Source: a virus (taxonomy: Duplodnaviria > Caudoviricetes). Taken from it: a stretch of DNA of 64,000 nucleotides. The notes beneath the pieces are model-generated. The model was not told the DNA's origin. It did no database searches and saw only the letters and a list, made by a program, of their open reading frames with translations. The stretch's first letter is position 1. The number at the start of each line of letters is the position of its first letter. Shown piece by piece: positions 9,407-24,090 of this stretch. The stretch is from the IMG/VR virus record IMGVR_UViG_3300047551_002158. The stretch is one strand, 5' to 3'. The translations under genes and the position numbers were made by a program.

Positions 9407-9437
9407 AACTTTGGGGCCTTGAAAGTGTCTCTATAGT
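9407..9437 (+). repeat. 31-bp cassette/promoter repeat, copy 1
   Basis: AACTTTGGGGCCTTGAAAGTGTCTCTATAGT. Confidence 0.9.
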
Positions 9438-9455
9438 GTAAGCAACAAACTTGAA

Positions 9456-9872
9456 ATGGGCACCCGAGCACGAATCGGTCTTGAACTCTCTGACGGTTCT
9501 ATTCTTTCTGCATATCACCATTGGGATGGTTATCCCGAATGGTTGGGTCGTATTCTGAACACTCACTATAATTCACGTTCTCTTGCTGAAGAACTGATTG
9601 GTGGTGGTGATATGAGTTCTTGCTGGACTGATTCACGTTGGGATGATAGTGCTGTAAAAGGTGTTTATGGACCCGAATACTACTCTCAACGTGGCGAAGA
9701 TCATCCTCCTCGCCTTGATGCTGACTTGTGTGAGTATCTTCTTCCTGATAATAGCGAAGAATATGCCTATATCTTCCGCAATGGTGAATGGGTATGCTAC
9801 AATATGCACCAGTTTGATGATAGCAAACTACCCGAAATCGTTGAAATTCCCTCTGCTGCTCTTGCTGTTTGA
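9456..9872 (+). CDS. hypothetical phage protein
   Basis: 138-aa ORF (MGTRARIG...YHHWDGYPEWLG) directly after repeat 1. Confidence 0.8.
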   Translation: MGTRARIGLELSDGSILSAYHHWDGYPEWLGRILNTHYNSRSLAEELIGGGDMSSCWTDSRWDDSAVKGVYGPEYYSQRGEDHPPRLDADLCEYLLPDNSEEYAYIFRNGEWVCYNMHQFDDSKLPEIVEIPSAALAV

Positions 9873-9874
9873 TT

Positions 9875-10033
9875 ATGACTTCTAAAACGACTTCCTACAT
9901 CTTTCTTGCTTTCATTGCTATTCTTGGATGGAACGCATTTCTAATCAAACGCGATGATGCAATGTATAAAGAATATGATCGTCGTCAAGCGATAGAAAAT
10001 ATTAAGAAACCACCAAGTAATCTAATCAAATGA
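9875..10033 (+). CDS. small membrane protein
   Basis: 52-aa ORF read by eye, one hydrophobic segment. Confidence 0.55.
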   Translation: MTSKTTSYIFLAFIAILGWNAFLIKRDDAMYKEYDRRQAIENIKKPPSNLIK

Positions 10034-10120
10034 GTTTGGGACTTGCTATCTTCATTTATCTTATGTTGGTTGCATTGGTCTCACTTCTTATGATATACTA
10101 CTACAAAGTGATACGACCGA

Positions 10121-10291
10121 ATGATGAGCGACGATTTAACACCTGAAGAAAGAAAGATTATCTTTCACGCTGTAAAGTACTGGCAGATGCACAAAGCATC
10201 ACTCAACGGAAAAGATTATCAGATTTGTGAGAACATTTTGAACCGTTGGTTTGATAGTGTTTATACTCAGAGAAAGGAGCAAGCAAGGTGA
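10121..10291 (+). CDS. small hypothetical protein
   Basis: 56-aa ORF read by eye (MMSDDLTPEERKIIF). Confidence 0.55.
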   Translation: MMSDDLTPEERKIIFHAVKYWQMHKASLNGKDYQICENILNRWFDSVYTQRKEQAR

Positions 10292-10469
10292 TTGAATACA
10301 CAAAACGACAAAAAGACTTACAAATGGAACGACAAATGGAAGATTTCTTTGCATTTGTTGAAGAACTTGCATCTAAGTATGAAGTCACTTGTGACTATAT
10401 TCTTGAAGAGTTCATCATTGACTAAACCTCACTTAACCATTAAACTATAGGAGTACATTACAAAAACAA

Positions 10470-10703
10470 ATGAAGTATCTGTATATTGTTGATTTCTGGG
10501 TTCCTTTTCCTTCTTCGGAATATGGTGGACTTATCAATGTTATCGCTGAAGATGATATTGAGTGCCACGACATTCTGCGAGACAGTGAAATCTGTTACGA
10601 TTCTACCTACGACAATAAGATTATGGAGCGTGTAGTTGCTGCTCCTCGTTTTGCTCTGGTAGATGAAGAAGAGTCCCGTATTGTTGAATCATTCACCACT
10701 TGA
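10470..10703 (+). CDS. small hypothetical protein
   Basis: 77-aa ORF. Confidence 0.7.
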   Translation: MKYLYIVDFWVPFPSSEYGGLINVIAEDDIECHDILRDSEICYDSTYDNKIMERVVAAPRFALVDEEESRIVESFTT

Positions 10704-10705
10704 TT

Positions 10706-10873
10706 ATGACTCAAAATGTTTCTCACACCAACAAAATGGTGTTTGATCTCAAGCAAATGTATCAGGGTAGGATCTCACAACTACAAGAGAAAATTACAGA
10801 ACAACAAAAAGAAATCTTGCAACTTCAGGAGCAAATCAAACTCCTCACTTATGAAAAGTTTTATGATTGCTGA
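10706..10873 (+). CDS. small coiled-coil protein
   Basis: 55-aa ORF read by eye. Confidence 0.55.
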   Translation: MTQNVSHTNKMVFDLKQMYQGRISQLQEKITEQQKEILQLQEQIKLLTYEKFYDC

Positions 10874-11172
10874 TGAAACTCTCAGTTGATTTAATCCCCA
10901 AGTTTAAGCACAAAGCACCAAAAGGTTACACCTATGAAGTTGAAGAGTTCAAACGTAATATCTTTTCTATTTGGTTGCGTTGCCACCGCAAGTTTGATTA
11001 CAATATGGGCAAACCTACCAGAACCATCTGGGGATTTTATGATTATAAAAAATGCAGATTCTATAGTCCTGTAAATAGTTCAACGGTTGGTAAAGAAGTA
11101 GATTTTGAGGACACAAGAGACTACACTTCAATGCCTATTAAATATCTTGGAGTTGAGGCATTTTTTGTATGA
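10873..11172 (+). CDS. hypothetical protein
   Basis: Track ORF 10867..11172; TGATG-coupled ATG at 10873. Confidence 0.7.
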   Translation: MKLSVDLIPKFKHKAPKGYTYEVEEFKRNIFSIWLRCHRKFDYNMGKPTRTIWGFYDYKKCRFYSPVNSSTVGKEVDFEDTRDYTSMPIKYLGVEAFFV

Positions 11173-11345
11173 TTTTTACAGAGGGAACTGAAGTCATTTA
11201 CAAAAGTATTTCTGGTGTGATTGCATTTACCTCTGAACAGTATGTTTCAATTTTGGTAAGTAAAGGTAGGCATCGTGCTCAAGATGTGAGAGTAGTTGTA
11301 TATCATTCAGACTTTAAGAATATTGTATTAGCAGACGGAAAATGA
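11169..11345 (+). CDS. small hypothetical protein
   Basis: 58-aa ORF read by eye, ATGA-coupled at both ends. Confidence 0.55.
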   Translation: MIFTEGTEVIYKSISGVIAFTSEQYVSILVSKGRHRAQDVRVVVYHSDFKNIVLADGK

Positions 11346-11605
11346 AACAGAAAACAATGTGGCGATGGTGGGCAAAGGCGATCGGTGAGAAAGCAAGTAA
11401 ATGCGATAAGGAATCGGATAAGATTGCTCTTATCCGAACTTTTATTTTTGCGACCTATTTGGTTACCAATGCTTTCATTGTGGCGGGTGTAGTCAGACAC
11501 TGGAATGATAAAACAAAAGTAGAAGTTTATATTGATGGTGTAAGTGCTCAACAATATCAAACTCCACCAGCACGAAAGGTAAATAGGGTTCTTGAGTTTG
11601 AGTGA
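11342..11605 (+). CDS. small membrane protein
   Basis: 87-aa ORF with one transmembrane-like segment (WRWWAKAIGEKA...). Confidence 0.7.
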   Translation: MKQKTMWRWWAKAIGEKASKCDKESDKIALIRTFIFATYLVTNAFIVAGVVRHWNDKTKVEVYIDGVSAQQYQTPPARKVNRVLEFE

Positions 11606-11632
11606 AACTAAATAATCAAAAAGACAAGAAAG

Positions 11633-12046
11633 ATGATTACCTTTAGAGAGTTTCTGTTAGTTTGTGAGAAGAAAACTTCTACACCATCTCACGCAGTTCC
11701 AGGAACTTATAATGAAGTAGATGGGGTGAAAACTTATACTCTTGCTCCATATGAAGGACCATCTGGACCTCTTAAAACTGAAAAGAAAGTCAAGAAAGTA
11801 TTAGATAAGCAAGGTGGAATTGGTGGTGGTGCTATCAAGAAAGCAAAGAAGAAAGCAGATAAGATTAAGAAACTTGAGGAGCAAGATCCTCATATGACGC
11901 CAACACCTTTTAATGTAGCAAAAGCACAAGCACAAGCAAAAGGTGGAGTTGTACATAGAAGACACGTTCATCAGGAGATTGGTGCTGAGGCAAGAGCACA
12001 GCAATCTGCAAAAAATGCAAGGATGAAAGCAATTCTGTCTCGTTAA
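11633..12046 (+). CDS. basic late protein, candidate internal head protein
   Basis: Preceded by CTAAATA (11608-11614); N-terminus MITFREFLLVCE resembles the T4 capsid-targeting sequence. Confidence 0.65.
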   Translation: MITFREFLLVCEKKTSTPSHAVPGTYNEVDGVKTYTLAPYEGPSGPLKTEKKVKKVLDKQGGIGGGAIKKAKKKADKIKKLEEQDPHMTPTPFNVAKAQAQAKGGVVHRRHVHQEIGAEARAQQSAKNARMKAILSR

Positions 12047-12050
12047 TCAA

Positions 12051-12081
12051 AACTCTGGGGCCTTGAAAATGTCCCTATAAT
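12051..12081 (+). repeat. 31-bp repeat, copy 2
   Basis: AACTCTGGGGCCTTGAAAATGTCCCTATAAT. Confidence 0.9.
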
Positions 12082-12101
12082 GTAAGCGTTCATTCCCAAA
12101 G

Positions 12102-12239
12102 ATGGATCACTACGACGACATCCAAGTTGAGGAGTTTTATCCTGCTGATTTTGTTGAAGAAGTTTATGAAGAACTCTTTGATGAAAATGATGATGATAAA
12201 TCCTTCCAACGCCTGATTAACTCCAACTACGATTTCTGA
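12102..12239 (+). CDS. small acidic protein
   Basis: 45-aa ORF read by eye after repeat 2. Confidence 0.5.
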   Translation: MDHYDDIQVEEFYPADFVEEVYEELFDENDDDKSFQRLINSNYDF

Positions 12240-12241
12240 TT

Positions 12242-12448
12242 ATGACTGACACTGTTAACGTCCTGCCTCATCTTAACGAACTCAAAGAGATTTGGCGCAA
12301 GCAAGATTTCACCTTTACAAAACAACAACGTGAAGAGTATGATATGCTTCTCAATGCTCGCCGCGAACGTGTAAAGTATTTTTACGATAACGATATGGTC
12401 TGCAAAATTAGTAAATCTGCTCAAGATAAACTGAAAGACGCTGACTGA
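12242..12448 (+). CDS. small hypothetical protein
   Basis: 68-aa ORF. Confidence 0.7.
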   Translation: MTDTVNVLPHLNELKEIWRKQDFTFTKQQREEYDMLLNARRERVKYFYDNDMVCKISKSAQDKLKDAD

Positions 12449-12484
12449 AATATAAATAAACAAGAAGCGTTTATTTAACTCACG

Positions 12485-13090
12485 ATGCGTACATTTCAGG
12501 AGTTTGTTTTGATTGCTGAAGCATCATATGATGCTGATGTAATGAAGTCTGCACAAATCCGCAAGACTGGTGAAGGCGGACGTATTGGTGCTCAACGCAA
12601 GAAAACTGCTCCTGAAAAACGCAGGATGGCTCAAGCAAAACCTGGCGAAGAAAGAAGACCAAGCGAATACAAACCACGCAAAGATATTGGTACTCAACGC
12701 CAAAGAAGTGAGCGTGAGCAACAACCAGAACAAGAACGTGGATCTGCAAGAGAAAGACAACTAGCCGCAGCAAAAGAAGAAAGAAGAAAGGCAGCACTTG
12801 CAAGAAGAGCAGCAAGAACTGGTGGTGCAGAACCAGCAACAGAAAAACCAAAAGCAAAAGAAGTATCAAAGACTGCATCTAAACTTCTCAAGAAGAAGAA
12901 AACTGAAGTAGATTTGAGACCTGCCGATCAACCAAAGAGAGCAGTTGTCGGTATGTCAAGAGAGCAAAGAAAAGATATTACAAGAAGAGGTCATAGAAAA
13001 CTTGAGAAACTTGTGAGACAATCTGAAGCAGAAAAGCAAGGTAAGAGACCAGAGGAAGTAAAACTCAAGCACGACTATCGCCCCAAGTAA
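12485..13090 (+). CDS. highly basic late protein, candidate internal head protein
   Basis: TATAAATA at 12451-12458; N-terminus MRTFQEFVLIAE; K/R/E/A-rich body. Confidence 0.7.
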   Translation: MRTFQEFVLIAEASYDADVMKSAQIRKTGEGGRIGAQRKKTAPEKRRMAQAKPGEERRPSEYKPRKDIGTQRQRSEREQQPEQERGSARERQLAAAKEERRKAALARRAARTGGAEPATEKPKAKEVSKTASKLLKKKKTEVDLRPADQPKRAVVGMSREQRKDITRRGHRKLEKLVRQSEAEKQGKRPEEVKLKHDYRPK

Positions 13091-13094
13091 TCTT

Positions 13095-13125
13095 AACTCT
13101 GGGGCCTTGAAAGTGTCCCTATAGT
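13095..13125 (+). repeat. 31-bp repeat, copy 3
   Basis: AACTCTGGGGCCTTGAAAGTGTCCCTATAGT. Confidence 0.9.
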
Positions 13126-13142
13126 ATAGACACCGCTTCATT

Positions 13143-13334
13143 ATGGACCGCATCGAAATCCAACGCAAACTCTATGATGCTCGCAATGAGTATCTGAAAG
13201 CAAAGAAATCTGTAGAGTTTTGGACGCGTGAGATTGCTTTCCTGAAAGAGTGTGAAAATGCCTTGAACAAACCCTCTTTGTTTGAGGAACTCTTTGGGGA
13301 TACTCCTATCGCTGAAGAAGTTTACGGAGGTTGA
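13143..13334 (+). CDS. small hypothetical protein
   Basis: 63-aa ORF after repeat 3. Confidence 0.7.
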   Translation: MDRIEIQRKLYDARNEYLKAKKSVEFWTREIAFLKECENALNKPSLFEELFGDTPIAEEVYGG

Positions 13335-13359
13335 CTTTAACTTCCAGACATCTTATTAT
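13331..13359 (+). promoter_or_regulatory. sigma70-like promoter
   Basis: TTGACT, 17 nt, TATTAT. Confidence 0.5.
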
Positions 13360-13379
13360 AGTAAAAGAAACTGATTATT

Positions 13380-13694
13380 ATGGCAACTTGGAGAGCAGAA
13401 GTATTTGTTAATTCTCAAGTCGGTAGGATTACTACTGAAGTTGAGGCAGCAACATTTGGCGGTGCAAAACAACAAATCTATGCAAAGCACGGTGATGTTC
13501 AACAAATCACAAACCTAAGAGAAGTTAGGTCTGGTGGTGGTGGTTCTTCATTCAGTTCTGGAGATGGTGAAGGACTTGTATGGTTACTGGGCATTGGACT
13601 TGTTCTTTATGCTCTCGTAACTTACTGGTATATTGCTATTCCTATCGGGATCGTCTTGCTTATTCTCATTGGTATGGGTATGAGCGATGACTGA
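13380..13694 (+). CDS. membrane protein
   Basis: 104 aa; Gly/Ser linker followed by a long hydrophobic C-terminus. Confidence 0.7.
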   Translation: MATWRAEVFVNSQVGRITTEVEAATFGGAKQQIYAKHGDVQQITNLREVRSGGGGSSFSSGDGEGLVWLLGIGLVLYALVTYWYIAIPIGIVLLILIGMGMSDD

Positions 13695-13725
13695 AACTCT
13701 GGGGCCTTGAAATTGTCCTTATAAT
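13695..13725 (+). repeat. 31-bp repeat, copy 4
   Basis: AACTCTGGGGCCTTGAAATTGTCCTTATAAT. Confidence 0.9.
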
Positions 13726-13730
13726 ATACG

Positions 13731-14972
13731 ATGAACCAAATGCAAATCCAACTCCGTCCTCATCAAGAACGCGCTGTTGCTGCTATGCAAAAGCACAACA
13801 AAGGGCAACTAATTAAACCTACTGGAGCGGGAAAAACCCTGACTATGATCTATGATTGTCTGCGCGAGTTGCAGTCAGAAACTCCCCAGACTATTGTTGT
13901 TGTTGCTCCTCGTATTCTGCTTGCTGAGCAACTCTCTGCTGAGTTTCTGGAGTTTATCACCAACGCTGCTGTGTTTCATATTCACAGTGGCGAAACTCAT
14001 CACGAAAGTTCTACTCGCCCTGGTATCATTCGCCAGTGGATCGAGAACAATCACTCCCGTCACAAGTTGATTATCACAACCTATCACTCCCTGTCTCGCC
14101 TTGAGCGTACTGGAGTTGATGTGGATACGATTTACTTTGACGAAGCACATAACAGTGTTCAGCGTCACTTTTTCCCTGCAACTGAGCACTTTGCTGCTAA
14201 TGCACGACGCTGCTATTTCTTCACTGCAACGCCAAAGCATAGCGTCACTGTAGGTAAACCTGGGATGAATATGCCTGAGGTTTATGGTCAGGTGATCTGC
14301 AAAGTTCCTGCTCCTGAACTTGTCGAAGGTGGTTACATTGTGCCCCCTAAAGTTATCGTCAAGCAACTGCCGATGGTGAAGGGTAAGCAGACCAACTTCG
14401 ACCGTGACGCAGAGAACCTGCTGGAAACGATTGATGAGAACAATGTCGGCAAGATCCTGATCTGTGCTAAGGCAACCAAGCAAATCGTTGCTCTTGTGTC
14501 TGAAACTGATTTCTGTGACGAACTGGAACAGCGCGGTTATTCTTGGATGTTCATTACTGCTAAGACGGGTGCAGTGATTGATGGTAAGAAAGTCAATCGT
14601 GAGGTGTTCTTTGATACTCTCAGTGCCTGGGGTAAGGATAACTCTAAGAAGTTTGTTGTTCTACATCACAGCATCCTCGCAGAAGGTATCAATGTGAGCG
14701 GACTTGAGGCAGTGTTGTTTATGCGTAATATGGACTACATTGGCATCAGTCAGACTATCGGACGCTGCATCCGTTTGCATCACGATGATGCTAAGAAACT
14801 GCGTGATGGTGCTATTCAACCTGGCAACCTCAGTCAATATACCAAATCGTTCGGTCTGGTTTGTATTCCCGTGTACTCTCAGGTTGGTATTGCTACTGCC
14901 CGCAGTGTTCAGGCAGTTGTTGATACTGTCTTTGAGAAGGGAGAGGCAGCGGTGAGCGTGGTTCGCAGGTGA
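13731..14972 (+). CDS. superfamily 2 DExH helicase (ResIII-like)
   Basis: Walker A PTGAGKT, DEAH, FTATP, LAEGINV and QTIGRCIR motifs. Confidence 0.9.
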   Translation: MNQMQIQLRPHQERAVAAMQKHNKGQLIKPTGAGKTLTMIYDCLRELQSETPQTIVVVAPRILLAEQLSAEFLEFITNAAVFHIHSGETHHESSTRPGIIRQWIENNHSRHKLIITTYHSLSRLERTGVDVDTIYFDEAHNSVQRHFFPATEHFAANARRCYFFTATPKHSVTVGKPGMNMPEVYGQVICKVPAPELVEGGYIVPPKVIVKQLPMVKGKQTNFDRDAENLLETIDENNVGKILICAKATKQIVALVSETDFCDELEQRGYSWMFITAKTGAVIDGKKVNREVFFDTLSAWGKDNSKKFVVLHHSILAEGINVSGLEAVLFMRNMDYIGISQTIGRCIRLHHDDAKKLRDGAIQPGNLSQYTKSFGLVCIPVYSQVGIATARSVQAVVDTVFEKGEAAVSVVRR

Positions 14973-15084
14973 GTCTCAATGAGATCCCTGTTCCCATCAG
15001 GGGTCAAAACCTGATTTTTCTTTAATTCTACCTGAAGGGTGCCATAGGTCATCCGTCGCAAAGAAATCACCGATTTTTATCAAA

Positions 15085-15612
15085 ATGACAATTTTGCCAT
15101 ATATTGGGTCTGTAATTAACCTTGGAAATTCGTTTTCTCAAGCAACTCGCCCAAAGAATGTTGGGCAACTCAGTGAACTAATTCAGATTTTTCGTGATTC
15201 AGACTGTGAACATAGTATAGGTGGTTGGGAACAATTCTATGATGAAAAAATTGGAAAATGTAAAATAGAAGACGCATCTGATAAGATTTGGAATTACGTT
15301 CAGCGTATAAAAGAGAATCTGAATAGATTAACCAAGGAAGATGTGTATGCTTGGACCAAGGATCTCATCATCGACAAAACATTTTCTGGATTACAACTTC
15401 AACTTGACATTCTTGAAATGGTGTGCGATAATGGAGATTATCGTCTTGCCAATTCTGAAGAAGAAGCAAAGGGAATTGACGGATTTGTAAATGGTGAACC
15501 TGTATCAATCAAACCACATACATACAAAAAAACCATTCAATCTGGAAAGGAATCAATCCAATATCGCATAATCTATTACAAGCAAACAAAGAACGGTCTG
15601 GTTATCACATGA
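15085..15612 (+). CDS. putative type II restriction endonuclease, MjaI-like PD-(D/E)xK
   Basis: TRPKNVGQLSELI N-terminal pattern recalled from MjaI-family enzymes; GIDGFVNGEPVSIKP catalytic-like motif; ATGA-coupled to a methyltransferase. Confidence 0.6.
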   Translation: MTILPYIGSVINLGNSFSQATRPKNVGQLSELIQIFRDSDCEHSIGGWEQFYDEKIGKCKIEDASDKIWNYVQRIKENLNRLTKEDVYAWTKDLIIDKTFSGLQLQLDILEMVCDNGDYRLANSEEEAKGIDGFVNGEPVSIKPHTYKKTIQSGKESIQYRIIYYKQTKNGLVIT

Positions 15613-16358
15613 AACAAATAATTTGTTCAGATGCTCTATCTACATTGCAAGAAATAGAAAGTGGTAGTGTAGATTTGGTTCTTACATCACCTCCATATAA
15701 TTTTGATATGAAGTATGATGAGCATAATGATAAAAAAAATTCTACAGATTATCTTACCACACTCGTCACAATCTTTGATGAGTGTATTCGTGTGTTAAAG
15801 TCTGGTGGAAGACTGATAATCAATATTCAACCAAATTATAAAGAATACTATCCATCACATCATGCTATCACAACTGCAATGATTGAGCGTGGATTGATTT
15901 GGAGAGGTGAAATAGTTTGGCTAAAGAACAATCTTAAGAAATTGACTGCTTGGGGTAGTTGGATGTCCCCATCCTGTCCTTACTTGTCATACCCATTTGA
16001 GTTTATCGAGGTCTTTAGTAAGGATACGTTAAAGCATATTGGCGACAAAGAAAACATTGATCTCACAAAAGATGAGTTCATTGAATATGTGAATGGTCAC
16101 TGGACGATAGCACCAGAAACAAGAATGAAAAAGTTTAATCATCCGGCAATGTTTCCAGAGGAATTGGCAAAACGCTGCATCAAATTGTTCTCATACAAGA
16201 ATGACTTAGTTCTTGATCCTTTCAATGGTGCAGGTACGACTACCTATGTTGCAAATTTGCTTGGGAGAAGGTATATTGGAATTGACATAAGTGAAACGTA
16301 TTGTGAGATTGCAAAAGAAAGAATCTCATCCACTAATCTACTGGAAAAGTTTTTTTAA
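15609..16358 (+). CDS. beta-class amino (N4-C/N6-A) DNA methyltransferase
   Basis: Motif IV TSPPY precedes HPAMFP and motif I VLDPFNGAGTT. Confidence 0.92.
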   Translation: MKQIICSDALSTLQEIESGSVDLVLTSPPYNFDMKYDEHNDKKNSTDYLTTLVTIFDECIRVLKSGGRLIINIQPNYKEYYPSHHAITTAMIERGLIWRGEIVWLKNNLKKLTAWGSWMSPSCPYLSYPFEFIEVFSKDTLKHIGDKENIDLTKDEFIEYVNGHWTIAPETRMKKFNHPAMFPEELAKRCIKLFSYKNDLVLDPFNGAGTTTYVANLLGRRYIGIDISETYCEIAKERISSTNLLEKFF

Positions 16359-16360
16359 TT

Positions 16361-16534
16361 ATGGAAGCATTTACAATGTATAAGGATGAATACGCTGCAA
16401 TTCCTTATGGTAAGCAGTATCTCATTATTCACAATGGGCAGCAACTTGAGCGACTGTGTAAGACTGAGGCAACAGCACGAAAGTATATCACAGACCTCAA
16501 GAAAGGTAAGAGCGTAGCACAACTTCCAATGTGA
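16361..16534 (+). CDS. small hypothetical protein
   Basis: 57-aa ORF read by eye (MEAFTMYKDEYAAIPYG). Confidence 0.6.
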   Translation: MEAFTMYKDEYAAIPYGKQYLIIHNGQQLERLCKTEATARKYITDLKKGKSVAQLPM

Positions 16535-16538
16535 TACT

Positions 16539-16570
16539 AACATCTGGGGCCTTGAAAGTGTCCATATAGT
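16539..16570 (+). repeat. 31-bp repeat, copy 5 (variant)
   Basis: AACATCTGGGGCCTTGAAAGTGTCCATATAGT. Confidence 0.88.
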
Positions 16571-16608
16571 GTGAGGACACATCCTCACAGAAGTTTCTAA
16601 CACAAACT

Positions 16609-16878
16609 ATGACTTTTTACTGGAAGTTCGTTGATACTCTCATCAAAAACATCGCTACTATCAGTGCCGTTGTTGTTGGTGTAGTTCAATTCCTTGTTCG
16701 TTCGTTCAATGAGAACAATGGTCGTGAGAAAGTTCGTGCTGCAACGCTTCAGTTTCTGAAGTTTGTTGATACTCTGATTGAGTTTGGTAAAGCACAACTT
16801 TCTCCCGTTGAAGTAGTTGAGCAACCTCAAGTTGTACCTGCTACTGTTACCAAAACCCGCAAGCGTCGTGCCGCTTGA
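16609..16878 (+). CDS. small hypothetical protein
   Basis: 89-aa ORF with a hydrophobic segment and a basic tail. Confidence 0.65.
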   Translation: MTFYWKFVDTLIKNIATISAVVVGVVQFLVRSFNENNGREKVRAATLQFLKFVDTLIEFGKAQLSPVEVVEQPQVVPATVTKTRKRRAA

Positions 16879-16890
16879 TGAAGTGTCACA

Positions 16891-16916
16891 AGAGGACTTG
16901 TAAAGTCCTCTTTTTT
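16891..16916 (+). terminator. hairpin with T-tract, overlapping a probable promoter
   Basis: AGAGGACT-TGTAA-AGTCCTCT followed by TTTTT. Confidence 0.7.
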
Positions 16917-16932
16917 ATGTCATTATAAGATT

Positions 16933-17826
16933 ATGCAAAACAAACACATCGAACACCCTGAAGATTCCATCCTGACTGGTGATCTATCAGTTCTGGATTG
17001 GTTTACTGCTCCTTCGCTGGTTTCTGTCAAGATTGATGGAAGTCCCAGTTTAGTGTGGGGTCGCAATCCTGCCAATGGTAAGTTCTTTGTGGGCACTAAA
17101 TCTGTGTTCAACAAAGTGAAGATTAAGATCAATCATTCTCATGAAGAAATTGATGCAAACCATCAAGGTAAAGTAGCATCTATTCTTCACGCTTGTTTCG
17201 ATAGTCTTCCCCGCACACAATTCATCTATCAAGGTGATTTTATCGGGTTTGGTGGGAGTGATACTTATCGTCCCAACACGATTACCTATAAGTTTCCTGA
17301 AGTAATTGAGCAAAGTGTTATTATTGCTCCTCACACTGAGTACATTTGTGAGGATGATCTTCGCAATGCTATCGCACAACCTATCAGCAAACAGTTTGTT
17401 GATACTTATGATGTGAAATGGGTGCAACCTGATGCAGAAATCTGTCCGTATCTGGATGACATTGAGGACTTCTGCAAGTTTGCAAAGCAAATGAGCACAC
17501 TTTGTGAGTTTGTGAGTGATAAGCAAGCAGCAGAACTCAAAAAAATCATCAATTCTTACATTCGTGAGGGTAAGGAGGTGGATGAGCACGAAATTGCAGA
17601 AAATTATGATGTTGACATCAACCTGATGCGTTTGTGGAAGTTGGTTGAATCTATCAAGATGGATTTGTTCTGCTTCATTGAGTGTGACACTGAGATTTCG
17701 TGTGAAATTGGTGGAGAATTGAGCGATCACGAAGGTTATGTGATGCACAATGAGTTTGGTTCTTACAAGATCGTAAACCGTGAAGAGTTTAGCAGACTGA
17801 ACTTCACTCTTGAAAAGAGTTGGTAA
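16933..17826 (+). CDS. hypothetical protein with ligase-like nucleotidyltransferase motifs
   Basis: VKIDGSP (motif I-like), YQGDF, EGYV and YKIV in the order of RNA/DNA ligase motifs. Confidence 0.55.
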   Translation: MQNKHIEHPEDSILTGDLSVLDWFTAPSLVSVKIDGSPSLVWGRNPANGKFFVGTKSVFNKVKIKINHSHEEIDANHQGKVASILHACFDSLPRTQFIYQGDFIGFGGSDTYRPNTITYKFPEVIEQSVIIAPHTEYICEDDLRNAIAQPISKQFVDTYDVKWVQPDAEICPYLDDIEDFCKFAKQMSTLCEFVSDKQAAELKKIINSYIREGKEVDEHEIAENYDVDINLMRLWKLVESIKMDLFCFIECDTEISCEIGGELSDHEGYVMHNEFGSYKIVNREEFSRLNFTLEKSW

Positions 17827-17855
17827 CTCTGGGGCCTTGAAAGTGTCCCTATAGT
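17825..17855 (+). repeat. 31-bp repeat, copy 6
   Basis: Consensus copy, followed by ATGAGCACAACCACAATG. Confidence 0.9.
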
Positions 17856-18152
17856 ATGAGCACAACCACAATGAGTCAATTTATCTGCATTACTTTCGGT
17901 CCTTCTGATGATGTTGTCCGCGATGGTTGGTGGAATCGTAAACAGCGTTTTGATGCTGTAGATGATGCCAAACAGTGTGGACGCCAACAACTCTCACAAC
18001 CTGGAACTTTTGGATATGTTGTCATTGAAGAAGGTGAAGATTGGTGGGAAGTTGTTGATGAACTCGGTGCTCCTGCTCACGCTGTGAGTATCTCTTGCAA
18101 CCGACTTGGTACATTTAAGGTAGAACCTGCTCCTGAACTTATTCTGGTTTAA
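17856..18152 (+). CDS. hypothetical protein
   Basis: 98-aa ORF; the start may be the second ATG (17871). Confidence 0.7.
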   Translation: MSTTTMSQFICITFGPSDDVVRDGWWNRKQRFDAVDDAKQCGRQQLSQPGTFGYVVIEEGEDWWEVVDELGAPAHAVSISCNRLGTFKVEPAPELILV

Positions 18153-18159
18153 TAGTAAA

Positions 18160-18390
18160 ATGACTGTAACTTTTTCTAAAGAGTTCATCAACGATTTCAT
18201 CAGTTATGTGATGTCTTTCTATGGTCCTGATGGCATCTATCCTATGGGCGCAAATCGTACCATAGTGCGTAAAGCAACCAACGATGTTATTCGTATTTCT
18301 AAGATCCAAGGTAGAGAGTTTCGTGGTGATAGTATTGACCGCGAATTTGTGCGAGACCTTTTGATTGACAAATATAATCTGTCCGTCTGA
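18160..18390 (+). CDS. small hypothetical protein
   Basis: 76-aa ORF ending immediately before repeat 7. Confidence 0.7.
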   Translation: MTVTFSKEFINDFISYVMSFYGPDGIYPMGANRTIVRKATNDVIRISKIQGREFRGDSIDREFVRDLLIDKYNLSV

Positions 18391-18421
18391 AACTCTGGGG
18401 CCTTGAAAGTGTCCTTATAGT
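18391..18421 (+). repeat. 31-bp repeat, copy 7
   Basis: AACTCTGGGGCCTTGAAAGTGTCCTTATAGT, followed by ATGAGCACAACCACAATG. Confidence 0.9.
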
Positions 18422-18880
18422 ATGAGCACAACCACAATGCAAGCACAAGCACAACAAACTATCACAGATTCGGTGCTGAAGCATACTCAAATGCTGATTG
18501 AAGCACTGAAAGATAACTATCGTCAGTATGCTATTCGTGGACATCAGCGAGCGATTGAGAACTTCAACTATACTTACGACACTACCGATTCGGTTCAGTC
18601 TCAGTATCATCAGCAGAAGATTGATGAACTCAAGAATGGTGATTGTCCCATTGATTATGTGATTGAAACGGGTAAAAAGTATCACAAAGTTATCTTTGTT
18701 GATGGTGGAGGTTCCCGCTCTGTTCATTGTTTCATTGATAAGAATACTGGAGAATTGTATAAGAGTTCCAGTTGGAAATCTCCCGCCAAAGGTGTTCGCT
18801 ACGATTTGCGTTTGATTAAAGACCGTGAATGGTTGTTTGAGAACGCAGACTGGAGCGGCGGGTACACTTACGCTCGCTGA
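18422..18880 (+). CDS. hypothetical phage protein
   Basis: 152-aa ORF (GKKYHKV...SVHCFIDK.TGELYK.SSWKSPAKGVRYDL). Confidence 0.8.
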   Translation: MSTTTMQAQAQQTITDSVLKHTQMLIEALKDNYRQYAIRGHQRAIENFNYTYDTTDSVQSQYHQQKIDELKNGDCPIDYVIETGKKYHKVIFVDGGGSRSVHCFIDKNTGELYKSSSWKSPAKGVRYDLRLIKDREWLFENADWSGGYTYAR

Positions 18881-18882
18881 TT

Positions 18883-19077
18883 ATGACTATTCTCAACCGC
18901 ATCAATCTCACGCAAGATGAAGAGAACTGTATTCTGTTCTTTCTCAACGATGCGCGAGGACTTACACACTTAAATAATAAAGAACAGTGGTATCCAGTTA
19001 TTGATACCATTCTCCAAAAGTATCTCAAGAAAAAGTATTCTAACCTCACTGAAGCACAACCTTTCCAAACACTATGA
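18883..19077 (+). CDS. small hypothetical protein
   Basis: 64-aa ORF. Confidence 0.6.
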   Translation: MTILNRINLTQDEENCILFFLNDARGLTHLNNKEQWYPVIDTILQKYLKKKYSNLTEAQPFQTL

Positions 19078-19214
19078 AATACGAAGTTAAACTCTATCAA
19101 GGCGGCAAAGTCTTCACTGAAGAAGTGTATGCCAGCACACCCAAAGATGCAAGGGAAACTGCATTGATTAGGAATCCAACTTGTAAGGTCGTTGGTGTTA
19201 ATGCAAAGTTTTGA
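19074..19214 (+). CDS. small hypothetical protein
   Basis: 46-aa ORF read by eye (MKYEVKLYQGGKVFTEEV), ATGA-coupled. Confidence 0.6.
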   Translation: MKYEVKLYQGGKVFTEEVYASTPKDARETALIRNPTCKVVGVNAKF

Positions 19215-19222
19215 GTGATAGC

Positions 19223-19253
19223 AACTCTGGGGCCTTGAAAGTGTCCCTATAGT
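19223..19253 (+). repeat. 31-bp repeat, copy 8
   Basis: Consensus copy, ATG directly adjacent. Confidence 0.9.
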
Positions 19254-19424
19254 ATGACTGAAACTTTCACCGTCCGCTTTGACTCCAACGCTCTGGATTC
19301 TCCAGAGTACATTGGACCTTTCTACTCTGAAGATGACGCACAAAACTATTGCGATGCCCGCAATGATTCGTTATCACTCTCAGGTGTTCCTTCCTGGGTT
19401 GCTTGTTACTCTGTTGTTGATTGA
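19254..19424 (+). CDS. small hypothetical protein
   Basis: 56-aa ORF read by eye (MTETFTVRFDS). Confidence 0.55.
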   Translation: MTETFTVRFDSNALDSPEYIGPFYSEDDAQNYCDARNDSLSLSGVPSWVACYSVVD

Positions 19425-19727
19425 TGATGACACAAACTCAATGGGATGACATTTACACTTCCCTCTACGAAGTGTATGAGAAAGTATCACTGAAGGATGA
19501 GCAAACCCGCTCTACTATTGGTGATGCACTTGACCGATTGATTGACATTAACCCTCGCAACTCTGTGAAGTGATTATGACTTTAACAACCACACAAATTG
19601 ATGCTCTAGTTGCCCTGATTGAGTATCATCAAGATGAAGGATGGTATAACATGATTGAAACTACGGGTCTTCTTGCCTATGAAGGTGGAGAACTTCGTAG
19701 AGAACTTCTCAAAATGCGTGAAGAGGT

Positions 19728-19931
19728 TTGATGATGACTAACGAACAAATCCTACAACTTGCTGAAAATTACAAGTTCTGTTGTCGTGATGAAGATGACA
19801 TTAAAGACTGGAAAGTAATTCCTTCTCTTATTCTTGAGTTTGCCCGAGCAATGTATGATGAGGGTTATGATAGAGGATACGATGAAGGTTACTCAAATTG
19901 TTCTCTTGACATGGGAGATGAGAATGTATGA
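19728..19931 (+). CDS. small hypothetical protein
   Basis: 67-aa ORF with a YDEGY repeat. Confidence 0.6.
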   Translation: MMMTNEQILQLAENYKFCCRDEDDIKDWKVIPSLILEFARAMYDEGYDRGYDEGYSNCSLDMGDENV

Positions 19932-20191
19932 CTTACTCTAACCTCTCCAAGATTCGTCCTAAACTTCGCACACAAGGTAACATCACTGGCAACTTTGGTC
20001 GCCCAAAATCTAAAGCGGGTTCGCCTCTTAATGAACTTGGAATGACTGCTGCTGATGTAGTCAAATGCCCCACACAAGATGAGTATTTGAATCGTTTGTA
20101 TTATGCGTTTGACAATACCACAGACGACAAACTCAAAAAGTTCATTTATCAGGAGATTCGTAAGATACACATTCAACGCGGAACTTGGTAA
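19928..20191 (+). CDS. small hypothetical protein
   Basis: 87-aa ORF (MTYSNLSKIRPKLRTQG). Confidence 0.7.
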   Translation: MTYSNLSKIRPKLRTQGNITGNFGRPKSKAGSPLNELGMTAADVVKCPTQDEYLNRLYYAFDNTTDDKLKKFIYQEIRKIHIQRGTW

Positions 20192-20199
20192 GTATCAGT

Positions 20200-20230
20200 A
20201 ACTCTGGGGCCTTGAAAGTGTCCCTATAGT
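20200..20230 (+). repeat. 31-bp repeat, copy 9
   Basis: Consensus copy, ATG directly adjacent. Confidence 0.9.
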
Positions 20231-20467
20231 ATGAGCAACACAATCGTTTCCGAAATCTACTCCTACCATACGAATTGGAAGGAAGGTAAAGTCAATCAAA
20301 TGTGGATTGAGCAAATCACTGATAAAGAGTGCGACAATCTCTACGTTGCTGTTGCACACAATCCTCGCAATGGTTCGACAATGGAGATGAGCAATCCCCG
20401 CACATCTTACTCCGAAACTCTAAACTGGGTTCGCGGTTATTGCGGCACTTTCTGTATTCTCAACTGA
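20231..20467 (+). CDS. small hypothetical protein
   Basis: 78-aa ORF. Confidence 0.65.
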   Translation: MSNTIVSEIYSYHTNWKEGKVNQMWIEQITDKECDNLYVAVAHNPRNGSTMEMSNPRTSYSETLNWVRGYCGTFCILN

Positions 20468-20600
20468 TGCGAATTGCACTTCTGTTTGCTACACTTTTCT
20501 TCGGTATTCATCTTGGCTCTAATGCACTTGCAACTGTGAGTGAGAAACAAGAACAACGTGCCGAACAATTCTGTAAAGTTAATCCTGATTTCTGCTGATT

Positions 20601-20837
20601 ATGCGTACTCTCACTCTCCAAGTTACTGAAGTTAAGTTTGATTTTGATGAGGATGATTTCAGCATTGAAGATCAACAAACAGTGATTGATTCTGTCGTTG
20701 GTGAAGTCTTTGAGGTTGAAGTTGATGACGATGATGATGACGGAGCAATCGCAGATGCTTTAGTTGAAGAGGTTACAGATTTCACTGGTTGGTGTGTCTA
20801 TTCTCTTGATTTCATTCACATTCTTAACACTCACTGA
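20601..20837 (+). CDS. small acidic protein
   Basis: 78-aa D/E-rich ORF. Confidence 0.7.
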   Translation: MRTLTLQVTEVKFDFDEDDFSIEDQQTVIDSVVGEVFEVEVDDDDDDGAIADALVEEVTDFTGWCVYSLDFIHILNTH

Positions 20838-21006
20838 TGAAACATTCCAACACAGTTCGTATCATCGACAAACTCAATCTGTTCCCTGAAACTAATGGTA
20901 AAGCACGATACATTTCCGTCAAGACATACAATCACGCGATGGAGATTGTAGATGAACAGAACAAACTTGGCAACGTAGCTACACTCATAAATTGGTAAAC
21001 ATCAGT

Positions 21007-21037
21007 AACTCTGGGGCCTTGAAAGTGTCCCTATAGT
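21007..21037 (+). repeat. 31-bp repeat, copy 10
   Basis: Consensus copy, ATG directly adjacent. Confidence 0.9.
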
Positions 21038-21211
21038 ATGAACACTAACCACAACGCAAATCCCTACACTCAGCAGGTTCTCGATAAGGGTCGTGACCTG
21101 CCTAAAGTTTCCGCTCCAAAGCGTACCTTTCCTCTGACGATTGGACTCCGAACCTATCACACTGAGGAACAGTATCAGGAAGCACTTGCTAACTTCATGA
21201 ACGGATATTGA
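21038..21211 (+). CDS. small hypothetical protein
   Basis: 57-aa ORF read by eye (MNTNHNANPYTQQVLDKGRDLP). Confidence 0.55.
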   Translation: MNTNHNANPYTQQVLDKGRDLPKVSAPKRTFPLTIGLRTYHTEEQYQEALANFMNGY

Positions 21212-21216
21212 TAGAA

Positions 21217-21408
21217 ATGATTTATACTTCTCCTCACACAAACAAGGTTTACACTATCATCCCAACTGACAAATACGGGTGGTTTCGTTATGATATTTAC
21301 GATGGAGATACCAAAGTTCAGTTTGCATTAACTGAAGAAGGAATTGCAGATTCCGTTACACATCACGAAGGAATCTATGCTCCCTGGTCTACTTCACGTT
21401 TCGACTGA
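21217..21408 (+). CDS. small hypothetical protein
   Basis: Track ORF 21208..21408; ATG at 21217. Confidence 0.6.
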   Translation: MIYTSPHTNKVYTIIPTDKYGWFRYDIYDGDTKVQFALTEEGIADSVTHHEGIYAPWSTSRFD

Positions 21409-21853
21409 TTATGTTCACAACTGCTGAAATCTCTGCGCTTCAATCACTCATTGAGTTTCATGATGATTGGGATGAAGTAAGCGAACTTCTGGGAACTGAT
21501 ATACACATTCTCTACGAAAAAGTCTGTGATCTTGATAAGGAAGTCGCACAATGATTGAAACTAATTTCTTCATTCTCACGCCCGAACAGTATCAAGAATC
21601 AATGCAAGATGCAGCGATTGAAGGTGTATCAGTTGACTACTATTTGCTGGAGTTTTGTTCAGTTGAAGGCGAATGGGTTGAGGTAGAGAATTGATGGCAC
21701 GCAAAAGTTTAACATTCAAGGCACCAGATAAAGTGAAAGTTCTTACACTACTTTTTGCACTTGCTATCATTTTCTCCCCAACAGTTCGCAACACAACTGC
21801 AAATGTACTTTATGCAACTGCTGACATTTTATCATCCAATTCTCAGTAATCAC

Positions 21854-21884
21854 AACTCTGGGGCCTTGAAAGTGTCCCTATAGT
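21854..21884 (+). repeat. 31-bp repeat, copy 11
   Basis: Consensus copy. Confidence 0.9.
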
Positions 21885-21914
21885 ATAAGCACAACACCCA
21901 ACCAACTTCTCACA

Positions 21915-22238
21915 ATGCGAATCATCGAACGCCAAATGAACAAAGCAATTCTCAACAGCGAGAATTGGAAATCTGCTAACACTGAGGTCATCTATTCTCC
22001 TCGACGTGATGCCTCTTATGTGTATCTTCACGGGAATCATATCGCTACGATTCTTGAAACTTCCATCGCACTTTACACTTGTGGGTATAAGACAAAAACC
22101 ACCAAGTCTCGTCTCAATGCTATTCTTCAAGAGCACGGAAATGGTGCCCGAATCTTTCAACAAAACTTCGAGTGGGTTGTGATTGATACAGACAACAATG
22201 ATCCGATTCCGTTCACTGAAGGTATGATCCTTAACTGA
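21915..22238 (+). CDS. hypothetical phage protein
   Basis: 107-aa ORF (MRIIERQMNKAI...VYLHGNHIA). Confidence 0.75.
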   Translation: MRIIERQMNKAILNSENWKSANTEVIYSPRRDASYVYLHGNHIATILETSIALYTCGYKTKTTKSRLNAILQEHGNGARIFQQNFEWVVIDTDNNDPIPFTEGMILN

Positions 22239-22438
22239 TGTCCCAAGTTCTTCTCCTGTTAAACACTCTCACTGATGAAGAGTTAGCATCACTTTCTGAT
22301 GAACAAATCATCCAAATGATAAACAATCAAGACGAACAATAAGTATAGCAAGAGGAAGGAAGTTTGCCTCTGTGATGTAAAGAAAGTGACTTCCGTAGAG
22401 TATAGATAATTCTCATTCAATAGTGGTTGGTGGGTTAT

Positions 22439-22470
22439 AGAGAGCGGACTGGTAATCCGCTCTCTTTTTG
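22439..22470 (+). terminator. intrinsic terminator-like hairpin
   Basis: AGAGAGCGGA-CTGGTAA-TCCGCTCTCT, then TTTT. Confidence 0.65.
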
Positions 22471-22835
22471 TATGCTTACTTATACCAACATAGACGAAAA
22501 ATGTGTAAATGAAAACAATTAAAAAACGTATTAAAAAATGTATATGAGCGTTGTATCTCTTGCTATGTGTGTATGCTTTATGTGTCTTTATGCGTGTAGA
22601 AGCATATACCAATCCCCGTAACTTATGGTCAATTAAATGCTCTGAGACCCTGTAACTTATGAGCATTTTAATGTCTCTTGGGGTCGTTATTTGTATCCTT
22701 AAAATCCTCTGAGACCTTGTTATCTTACGTCGCAAGCTATCACACTCTCCCCCAATCTGTCAATACCCCCAGCGTCACAAAATCCTCACAATCCCCGCCC
22801 AGGATCCCCCGGAAGGCGCCTAAATACCCCAAGAC

Positions 22836-22865
22836 TTGACACACTACCTCACAGCATATTATAAT
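22836..22865 (+). promoter_or_regulatory. sigma70 consensus promoter
   Basis: TTGACA 22836-22841, 18 nt, TATAAT 22860-22865. Confidence 0.75.
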
Positions 22866-22894
22866 GGTTCCACAACACCCAACGGAGAGCGATT

Positions 22895-23068
22895 ATGTCG
22901 GTTGCGTATCAACAAGCCCAGAAGCAGCGTTATAGGATCACTCTGGAAATGAACGTTCTTGCTGACTTCGATCCACACCAGATTGACTGGGAGAAGTTAT
23001 TCAAACTCGAACCAAGTGAGCGGTGTGAAGCATACGTTGAGGACCTCGATTGCCCTTCTAAGTGGTAG
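22895..23068 (+). CDS. small hypothetical protein
   Basis: 57-aa ORF read by eye (MSVAYQQAQKQRYRITLE), GGAG SD. Confidence 0.7.
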   Translation: MSVAYQQAQKQRYRITLEMNVLADFDPHQIDWEKLFKLEPSERCEAYVEDLDCPSKW

Positions 23069-23079
23069 AAACGCACTTT

Positions 23080-23131
23080 TAGTTTTGTCCCAAAACTTAT
23101 ACATATTAGGGGGTATTTTGGGACAAAACTA
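23080..23131. repeat. perfect 16-bp inverted repeat
   Basis: TAGTTTTGTCCCAAAA (23080-23095), 20-nt spacer, TTTTGGGACAAAACTA (23116-23131). Confidence 0.9.
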
Positions 23132-23298
23132 TGAGACCGAAGAATTACACTTTTCTGGGTACGACAGAAAGAATGCGAGTGCCTTATGTGAAGCAAATGA
23201 GTGCGATCTTAAATGAGTTAAATCGTATCGCAGAGTTAGGTCACGATCCGACCGAATATCTGGAGGAGTTTATAGAGCGTCTGGAGTTGGTTGAATGA
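23131..23298 (+). CDS. small hypothetical protein
   Basis: 55-aa ORF read by eye; its ATG begins on the last base of the inverted repeat. Confidence 0.55.
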   Translation: MRPKNYTFLGTTERMRVPYVKQMSAILNELNRIAELGHDPTEYLEEFIERLELVE

Positions 23299-23329
23299 AA
23301 CTCTGGGGCCTTGAAAGTGTCTCTATAGT
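23299..23329 (+). repeat. 31-bp repeat, copy 12
   Basis: AACTCTGGGGCCTTGAAAGTGTCTCTATAGT. Confidence 0.9.
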
Positions 23330-23351
23330 GTAAGGACAACCCAACCACAAG

Positions 23352-23543
23352 ATGACCACCATTTCCTACATCACCTCTCTCTATTGGTTCGCCTATAGTG
23401 TTATCAGTCTCGCAGAGCAGGATAATGTCCGCTGCACAATGAATGACTGGTGGGAGTACAATATCGGTGCAGATGTGTTCCACGATGATATCTGCCGTGC
23501 GCTTGCTGTTGATACGAAAGCAAAGCAAGTTTACGGTTTCTGA
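23352..23543 (+). CDS. small hypothetical protein
   Basis: 63-aa ORF after repeat 12. Confidence 0.55.
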   Translation: MTTISYITSLYWFAYSVISLAEQDNVRCTMNDWWEYNIGADVFHDDICRALAVDTKAKQVYGF

Positions 23544-23574
23544 GTTACACTTTTCCCACTAAACTTTTCTCCAA

Positions 23575-23820
23575 ATGACTACCACTTTCCAAACCAATCT
23601 GACCGACACTTCCTATAACGGTTGGACGAATTATGAAACCTGGAATGTTGCTCTCTGGATCGGTAATGATGAGGGTCTGTATAACCTTGCCCGTGAGGCA
23701 GGTGATTATCAAACCTTCTGCGATTGCATTGGTTCTGATGCACAAACTCTTGATGGGGTGCGTTATGATGACCCCAAGGTAAATGTGGTCGAAATCAATA
23801 GCGACGTGTTCGACTTCTAA
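23575..23820 (+). CDS. small hypothetical phage protein
   Basis: 81 aa (YNGWTNYETWNVALWI). Confidence 0.75.
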   Translation: MTTTFQTNLTDTSYNGWTNYETWNVALWIGNDEGLYNLAREAGDYQTFCDCIGSDAQTLDGVRYDDPKVNVVEINSDVFDF

Positions 23821-23899
23821 GTAACACAAAGGGGAATGAGATGCGCCCCTATAAAGACACTCACTCAACACACAGTTCATTACACTTTTCTCTCTTATT

Positions 23900-24040
23900 A
23901 TGTCCAAGTCTGTGATGCTTTCCCTGCTGGCACAAGGTAACACTGGCGATGAAATCTTGTCCATTCTGGATACTCTCACCGCTGATAATGTTGCTGATGA
24001 TGCTGATACTCTGGGGACACTGAATACGATCGAGTTCTGA
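23900..24040 (+). CDS. small acidic protein
   Basis: 46-aa ORF read by eye (MSKSVMLSLLAQGNTGDEIL). Confidence 0.55.
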   Translation: MSKSVMLSLLAQGNTGDEILSILDTLTADNVADDADTLGTLNTIEF

Positions 24041-24051
24041 TAGCAACTGTG

Positions 24052-24090
24052 CGCCCCTTGGTTGACACTGAGGGGCGTTTATGTTATGAT
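24052..24090 (+). promoter_or_regulatory. strong sigma70 promoter with stem-loop over -35
   Basis: TTGACA 24062-24067, 17 nt, TGn-TATGAT 24085-24090; stem 24052-24059/24070-24077. Confidence 0.75.

Follow-up and report, generated by a model that had tools for sequence, protein, structure and literature searches.

Repeated intergenic elements called PeSLs (promoter-early stem-loops) are known from the T4-type phages RB49/phi1, T4/PST and KVP40/nt-1, in which a terminator stem-loop lies upstream of a sigma-70 promoter whose -35 and -10 hexamers are placed at N17 (PMC2839356, PMC4122927). The locus analysed here is an array of twelve repeats in a 64,000-nt stretch of viral DNA (IMG/VR record IMGVR_UViG_3300047551_002158), the whole of which is referred to as the window. 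The window belongs to a T4-like cyanomyovirus, its gp6 (26862-28796) being 75% identical to gp6 of Synechococcus phage S-SM2, and the sequencing runs containing window sequence were freshwater metagenomes. The twelve repeats are probably junction elements of an early gene array, each of them most likely a promoter that is read by the host RNA polymerase with the help of an additional factor. Like PeSLs, they are conserved, co-oriented and intergenic; the region around them is hyperplastic and made up of small genes, and relatives differ beside them by indels, replacements and reorderings. Unlike PeSLs, they carry no -35 hexamer, their stem-loop lies inside the element and is not conserved in the family, and a start codon is often embedded. 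Of the features that define PeSLs, the two structural ones (a -35/-10 pair and an upstream terminator) were missing, and clustering near indels and replacements was present with a modest enrichment.

A second system for comparison is the MotA/AsiA-dependent middle promoters of T4, in which a specific box likewise takes the place of the -35 hexamer, about 12 bp before a sigma-70-type -10 (11-12 bp in the window repeat). The window repeat differs from them in that its spacer is conserved too, its timing is probably early, and MotA/AsiA homologues are missing from its relatives. The MotA box TGCTTtA, centred at -30, was not there, and a different box was found in its place. No match to PF09158 or PF09010 was obtained in S-SM2, SynMITS9220M01, P-TIM68, G001 and G012 (three complete and two near-complete genomes), in a search for which the T4 control was positive for PF09158.

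The third system is found in the cyanophages themselves. Doron et al. (2016) reportedly described a new early element that T4-like cyanophages have in common, and it was reconstructed here from the sequences of Syn9 and P-HM2. Both it and the window repeat lie in the region upstream of g25/g6 and have a GTGT-N3-4-TATA core by the hexamer. The Syn9/P-HM2 element heads early units, and the window repeat probably does so as well. Furthermore, the P-HM2 hexamer is followed by GTAAGG or GTAAGC, which resembles the GTAAGCA of the window repeat. In the Syn9/P-HM2 element the leaders are 17-19 nt long, and a 22-bp palindrome, GTGNCAGT-N6-ACTGNCAC, precedes the -10 by about 30 nt. Two such palindromes are located in each of the early blocks of P-HM2 (13692 and 17294 in L144) and Syn9 (5560 and 9998 in L021), and the palindrome is absent from the window, S-SM2 and the sequence L022. 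Instead of it, the window and S-SM2 carry a lineage-specific box directly upstream. The window element is a variant of such repeated early-promoter/junction elements.

Structure of the repeat

An earlier note on this DNA, made from the letters alone, had reported a 31-bp repeat in twelve same-orientation copies, each close to the preceding stop codon, and this description was borne out. A search with the 31-nt word, allowing at most three mismatches, gave 12 sites on the + strand and 0 in shuffled sequences, and no further copies were detected in the 64 kb, also when a looser core pattern was tried. Eleven of the twelve starts agreed with those reported; the fifth copy starts at 16540 and not at 16539. 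The copies start 0-8 nt after a stop codon, except for one that overlaps it. The repeat occupies the entire gap between the stop codon and the next gene. All genes of the region are on the same strand, and the repeats head, in the same orientation, units of 1-10 tightly packed genes.

The repeat is longer at its 3' side than the first 31 nt, extending to about 38 nt, through TATAGT to RTRAGCAC. A conservation profile was calculated from the pooled 116 distinct copies of the window and its close relatives, to which the conservation results of this paragraph refer. Conservation begins sharply 5 nt before GGGG. Since nothing is conserved upstream of this point (beyond position -5), any signal sits within the repeat. 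The hexamer TATAGT has the variants TATAAT, TATGAT, TATACT and CATAGT, its final T is retained in 115 of the 116 copies, and the pattern of variation resembles that of a -10 element. The base after the hexamer is always a purine and the following one almost always T, and a conserved C-A is found exactly 7 nt downstream of the hexamer. The earlier note had found no -35 hexamer 17 bp upstream of TATAGT, and indeed CTCTGG stands there in all copies. On the 3' side comes a stretch of about 28 nt that is rich in C and A and poor in G (9% G and 35% C). This CA-rich tract is equally strong whether it is coding or non-coding and was not seen at internal gene starts.

The twelve copies, all on the + strand, differ in what follows the hexamer. 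Copies 6 (17825-17862, overlapping the stop codon of the DUF6267 gene), 7 (18391-18428), 8 (19223-19260), 9 (20200-20237) and 10 (21007-21044) are of the ATG type, and no other start codon is near copies 8, 9 and 10. The GTA type is represented by copy 1 (9407-9444), which is the first of the array and has its gene start 18 nt after TATAGT, by copy 2 (12051-12088), a TATAAT variant across which a contig from an RNA library runs, and by copy 12 (23299-23336), the last of the array. Copies 3 (13095-13132, 4 nt after the stop of a 201-aa protein named P201) and 11 (21854-21891) are of the ATA type, and copy 5 (16540-16577) is of the GTG type. Copy 4 (13695-13732) is degenerate, with TATAAT, and the ATG of the helicase gene lies 5 nt after its hexamer.

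Repeat family and box types

The exact 25-mer of the window was found in 18 IMG/VR stretches and the common 3' half in more than 120, and the family is also present in the isolates S-SM2, SynMITS9220M01 and P-TIM68. In every record there is a single array, its 4-14 units oriented alike and contained in 10-16 kb. For example, the 190-kb genome of S-SM2 has 10-11 related copies, all of them in the syntenic region, and the copies are limited to that region in SynMITS9220M01 and in a 175-kb contig as well.

The constant 3' half, which consists of AAAGTGTCCC, TATAGT and RTRAGCAC, is common to all members, while the part that varies between lineages is a 5' box of 8-12 nt at about -35 to -24. In the window this box is CTGGGGCCTT, and it is joined to the hexamer by the constant block AAAGTGTCCC. 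The boxes were classified into type A (GGGGCC, the window), type B (GGGGGGACG), type C (GGGGGGTCG, S-SM2), type D (CTCACCTCC, SynMITS9220M01), type E (GATCG-containing), type F (GGGCCC) and type G (several GAGGC-like boxes). P-TIM68, an AT-rich relative, has an AT-rich form of the family. Behind it come AAGGA, which resembles a Shine-Dalgarno sequence, and, at a distance of about 20 nt, an ATG, an arrangement that reads as ordinary promoter-leader geometry.

Arrays are largely pure in their boxes: among the 61 arrays that hold five or more copies, 45 were of a single type, and a clearly foreign copy was found in only about five. Lone foreign-box copies within otherwise pure arrays were seen in the IMG/VR relatives L002 (at 6685), L001, L067, L078 and L098, and are perhaps traces left when a cassette was recently brought in from a different lineage. 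Mimicry of a host sequence was considered and rejected, as a search of 185,579 prokaryote genomes with the constant half gave 8 scattered single matches, with no cyanobacterium among them, a number lower than the roughly 70 matches expected by chance under the assumption of a uniform base composition. No description of the motif was found in the literature searched, where the string matches were T7-promoter primers.

The imperfect hairpin of the repeat spans positions -31 to -13, inside the putative promoter region, and has no U-run. Box types A, B and C are foldable, at -7 to -11 kcal/mol, whereas types D and E are not. The 5' arm of type A shows almost no variation in the 116 distinct copies, and the 3' arm varies. 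The earlier note had described most arm variants as C>T changes that keep G.U pairing. This was right for most variants of the 3' arm, but a C>A change at one position, present in 11 copies, breaks the pair, and no compensatory changes were found in the arms of the 116 copies. The hairpin is real in the lineage of the window and is lineage-specific. Because types D and E cannot fold and one 3' arm change of type A breaks a pair, it is no defining feature of the family.

Promoter reading and the embedded start codon

In the proposed mechanism, the host RNA polymerase would read each repeat by using TATAGT as a -10-like element with no -35 hexamer. The place of the latter would be taken by the lineage-specific box, an arrangement that points to a box-specific helper protein. 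Because there are no terminators between the units, transcripts would continue through the downstream cassettes, and the constant half could also serve as a homology patch for cassette exchange. The same phage also has a perfect sigma-70 consensus promoter (TTGACA-18-TATAAT, 22836-22865, + strand), which belongs to a separate class, and T4-type late promoters with ordinary spacing; the repeat would therefore be a third promoter class.

The timing was judged by comparison with P-HM2. The array is syntenic with the P-HM2 early cluster PHM2_056-074, defined by RNA-seq, after which middle genes, late genes, g25 and g6 follow. The first gene of the array (9456-9872, + strand, 138 aa, phrog_1987) is a homologue of the early-expressed PHM2_061. 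This synteny and the one homologous early gene suggest that the array is an early block rather than a middle one.

Several observations weigh against a promoter at each repeat. An ATG directly follows TATAGT in about 55-59% of the copies (77/131 locally and 323/543 family-wide), and a sigma-70 start 7 nt downstream would exclude this ATG from the transcript, and therefore the genes that begin with it would need read-through from upstream copies. The hexamer of P-TIM68 is a poor -10 element. The one metatranscriptome with window sequence contributed ten short contigs, which give no information on starts or ends, and one of them reads straight through a copy. Finally, most gene-content differences do not map to repeats.

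The abutting ATG opens a long open reading frame (ORF) in frame in 72 of 77 cases; the peak of the offset between hexamer and ATG is at exactly 0, and there is almost nothing at 1-11 nt. The DUF6267 protein starts with MKNTHLEHPED at the repeat-abutting ATG in five relatives and S-SM2, and in the window, where its gene is preceded by a terminator and not by a repeat, it starts with MQNKHIEHPED. This comparison shows that the abutting ATG is a true start codon. It is at odds with ordinary sigma-70 geometry and is a difficulty for a simple promoter reading.

Two solutions can be considered. Read-through from upstream fits the lack of terminators between units and the RNA-library contig that spans one copy. 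Copies that are first in their array, moreover, are mostly non-ATG (10 of 13, versus 45% elsewhere), which is suggestive only, because most of them head the same gene family. Alternatively, the RNA 5' end may lie directly after TATAGT, as the sharp peak at offset 0 suggests and as the purine that always comes next would fit. Such a 5' end could come from non-canonical initiation or from cleavage.

If cleavage is its source, the repeat might act in RNA instead. The array would then be transcribed from upstream, and the repeat would be a processing and translation-start module, cleaved right after UAUAGU to give mRNAs that start with AUG (leaderless) or have a short CA-rich leader. This explanation is considered rather unlikely, even though it accounts well for a true start codon at exact offset 0 in more than half of the copies. 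RNase E prefers RN↓WU, which the purine and the mostly following T after TATAGT fit. The 28-nt CA-rich tract, equally strong in coding and non-coding positions, the presence of Shine-Dalgarno sequences in only 4 of 99 motif-led genes, and the contig that spans one copy are also in its favour. However, the hexamer varies like the -10 element of a DNA promoter, box types D and E have no hairpin, compensatory changes were not found, no promoter was evident upstream of the array, and a 14-kb primary transcript would be required.

Readings of the repeat as a sigma-54 or NtcA site or as a RegA operator were dropped, as GTA-N8-TAC was not present and the non-ATG copies retain the motif. Sigma-54 is, to our knowledge, not known in cyanobacteria.

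Co-inheritance of P201 with the box type

One array gene was found to follow the box type. P201 (12485-13090, + strand) is a very basic protein of 201 aa encoded in front of copy 3. A screen was carried out on 51 array gene families with at least 5 type-A and at least 5 other sequences each. P201 alone of the 51 families splits type A from non-A in one step (13 vs 24 sequences); shuffles of P201 needed 11 steps on average and 7 at minimum, and the next best family needs 8. The grouping had been spotted on a quick tree before the formal tests. A careful P201 tree places the 11 type-A rows in a single clade (support 100/100), and the grouping is also recovered by either part of the protein alone, the N-terminal 140 residues or the C-terminal 60. 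With 12 refined box subtypes, the changes above the minimum were 1 for P201, 12 for the helicase, 14 for P152 and 18 for DUF6267. The correlation of protein with box distances was set aside as a measure: it is highest for P201 (r = 0.35), but the helicase reaches 0.23, because box distances saturate. Single-linkage clustering of the boxes was useless, as the types collapsed.

The same association was seen among phages. P201 was found in only five phages of the collection, namely S-SM2 (where it is SSM2_065), SynMITS9220M01, P-TIM68 and two single-cell marine viruses, and DUF6267 was found in 375 records of it. The repeat family is present in 3/3 of the P201-positive isolates and in 0/8 of the isolates without a P201 match. 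Among these eight is Bellamy, whose gp6 is closer to that of the window than the gp6 proteins of SynMITS9220M01 and P-TIM68 are. The link between P201 and the box is co-inheritance as read from sequences, not proof of binding. In T4 we know of no comparable case of a protein inherited together with a promoter box.

No Pfam or PHROG match was found for P201. The protein is mostly helical or disordered, and in its structure model, which is of low overall confidence (pTM 0.26), only helices are predicted with confidence, among them a C-terminal one at 159-185. Its N-terminus is MRTFQEFVLIAE followed by A, and MKTFxEF...E followed by A is found in 41/41 homologues. This start is close to the capsid-targeting tag of T4, MKTYQEFIAE. 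A late-promoter motif, TATAAATA (12451-12458, + strand), lies 26 nt before the start codon of P201, and such a motif is found 17-26 nt upstream of the gene in 34/41 homologues. P201 thus has both sequence features of capsid-targeted cargo, the (L/I)xE-type end of the tag and the late-promoter motif, when compared with the T4 consensus. It is like the head-packaged proteins IPI-III and Alt of T4 in its targeting-type tag, late promoter and strongly basic character, and unlike them in that no sequence relation exists beyond the tag. It is conceivable, as a tentative proposal that rests on its co-inheritance with the box, that P201 is packaged in the head, injected together with the DNA and able to recognise the box, and that it would either recruit the host polymerase to the -35-less promoters at the start of infection or silence them late.

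These results also bear on the earlier note's view of the repeats as an activator-dependent class analogous to the MotA-box promoters. The separateness from sigma-70 promoters and the geometry of the box support that view in part, for the box stands in the -35 place with the same spacing to the -10 and is lineage-specific. It is nevertheless improbable that they are middle promoters which, like those of T4, need a newly made early phage activator: no MotA/AsiA homologue turned up in the five related genomes searched, three of them complete and two near-complete; the array lies in synteny with the P-HM2 early cluster and shares homology with it; and the sole gene that tracks the box is a late gene with a capsid-targeting tag.

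Cassette exchange and gene flow

The repeat had also been regarded in the earlier note as a recombination joint at which cassettes are gained, lost and shuffled. Gene-order strings of 12 arrays showed repeat-bounded cassettes that are present, absent or relocated, and the helicase and DUF6267 units occur in two orders among the arrays. Many homology blocks between arrays begin or end within a few nt of a repeat. Of the block ends at gene junctions, 293/737 (40%) are at repeat junctions, and repeats make up 29.5% of the junctions; another 209 block ends lie inside genes. Gain, loss and reordering of cassettes were thus confirmed, but homology breaks are only mildly more frequent at repeats than expected. 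Cassette exchange at repeats is real and only mildly enriched (1.35-fold). Conserved adjacency between called ORFs amounted to 16% where a repeat junction intervened and 24% elsewhere, and was too noisy to count. Junctions of excised mini-circles between neighbouring copies, a feature of PeSLs, were not seen in the contig data; assembly breaks occur at the repeats, but these are effects of a repeated 31-mer on assembly and were not used as evidence.

Cargo genes are scrambled across box types, and the helicase tree has type A at no fewer than 6 places. The grouping of all type-A sequences in one clade was rejected for the helicase (p = 2e-70), P152 (1e-6) and P138 (2e-7), and also for the late gene p255 (2e-8) and, on the same contigs, the core gene gp6 (1e-124); for the short gp25 it was not rejected (p = 0.15). 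Genes move between lineages, and each genome keeps one box. That arrays are box-pure while their cargo is scrambled argues for selection on the box within each genome.

Cassette shuffling and box homogeneity would suit a recombination site or selfish repeat without any role in expression. Such an explanation is very unlikely, because the repeats have a fixed orientation, an exact stop-to-start placement, -10-like variation and a linked CA-rich tract, and because the enrichment of homology breaks at them is so small. A strict PeSL, in which a terminator stem-loop would precede a strong sigma-70 early promoter, is hardly credible: the repeated, co-oriented, intergenic placement in a hyperplastic region and the hairpin of the window lineage agree with it, but no -35 exists at 17 bp, the hairpin lies within the promoter region without a U-run and is missing in types D and E, and the ATG-abutting genes would need read-through. 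Just as little can be said for a promoter of a phage-type single-subunit RNA polymerase, with TCCCTATAG resembling the T7 core TCACTATAG and initiation right after TATA; the strong conservation of about 30 nt including the first transcribed bases, the purine at the putative start and the offset-0 ATG would be explained, but no PF00940 polymerase match was found in S-SM2 or two long relatives, in a search made without a positive control. We know of no single-subunit RNA polymerase encoded by T4-like cyanophages.

A composite that is PeSL-like in the classical sense is present at 24051-24090, where a 12-bp stem-loop with a T-rich tail contains the -35 of TTGACA-17-TATGAT, a sigma-70 promoter that is close to the consensus and has a TG extension. 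A second promoter, TTGACA-17-TAAAAT, is located at 24618.

Array cargo and neighbouring sequences

The earlier note had listed a helicase/restriction-modification block and a ligase-like gene among the cargo. The helicase, the MjaI-type restriction endonuclease and the N4/N6 methyltransferase were confirmed (13731-16358, + strand), whereas the ligase-like gene turned out to encode a DUF6267 protein (16933-17826, + strand), for which no solved relative was found by sequence. The segment 15085-16358 holds a complete type II restriction-modification pair in overlapping genes (MjaI-family endonuclease and N4/N6 methylase), beside the helicase in the putative early array, and the annotation of S-SM2 also has a restriction enzyme at the corresponding place. 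Within one cassette, at 16890-16932, there is an intrinsic terminator with a 10-bp stem and T6, followed by TATAAG 3 nt before the start of DUF6267. In relatives a repeat copy takes the place of this terminator and the ATG of DUF6267 directly adjoins it.

The stretch 22289-22735 is the only part of the array without a convincing gene on the + strand. It has a strong + strand terminator (22439-22465) and a 148-aa ORF on the minus strand with a TTG start. The G+C content is 40-43% in the array (12000-24000), 27-33% in the structural region downstream and 33-38% in the small-gene region upstream. A 313-aa ORF (2934-3875) contains four tandem 78-nt units at 3233-3568, which give a repetitive protein, and 86-nt segments related to these units reappear at 3715, 6169 and 6355.

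Implications for T4-like cyanophages

Two features of this element are new here, namely the start codon that abuts TATAGT and P201 as the sole array family that tracks the box type. The T4-like cyanophages are not known to encode MotA, AsiA or Alt. The embedded start codon raises the possibility of leaderless early mRNAs in these phages. Lake and marine viromes contain the repeat family in abundance, its box types are interchangeable, and its occurrence in three cultured phages makes it accessible to testing. The combination of pure boxes and freely exchanged cargo illustrates cleanly, in nature, how genes can flow as modules under a constraint of regulatory compatibility. If the role proposed for P201 is true, this protein would be a non-homologous, virion-delivered counterpart of T4 MotA. 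Through the co-inheritance of this one capsid-targeted protein with the box, what reads these putative promoters can be addressed by direct experiment.

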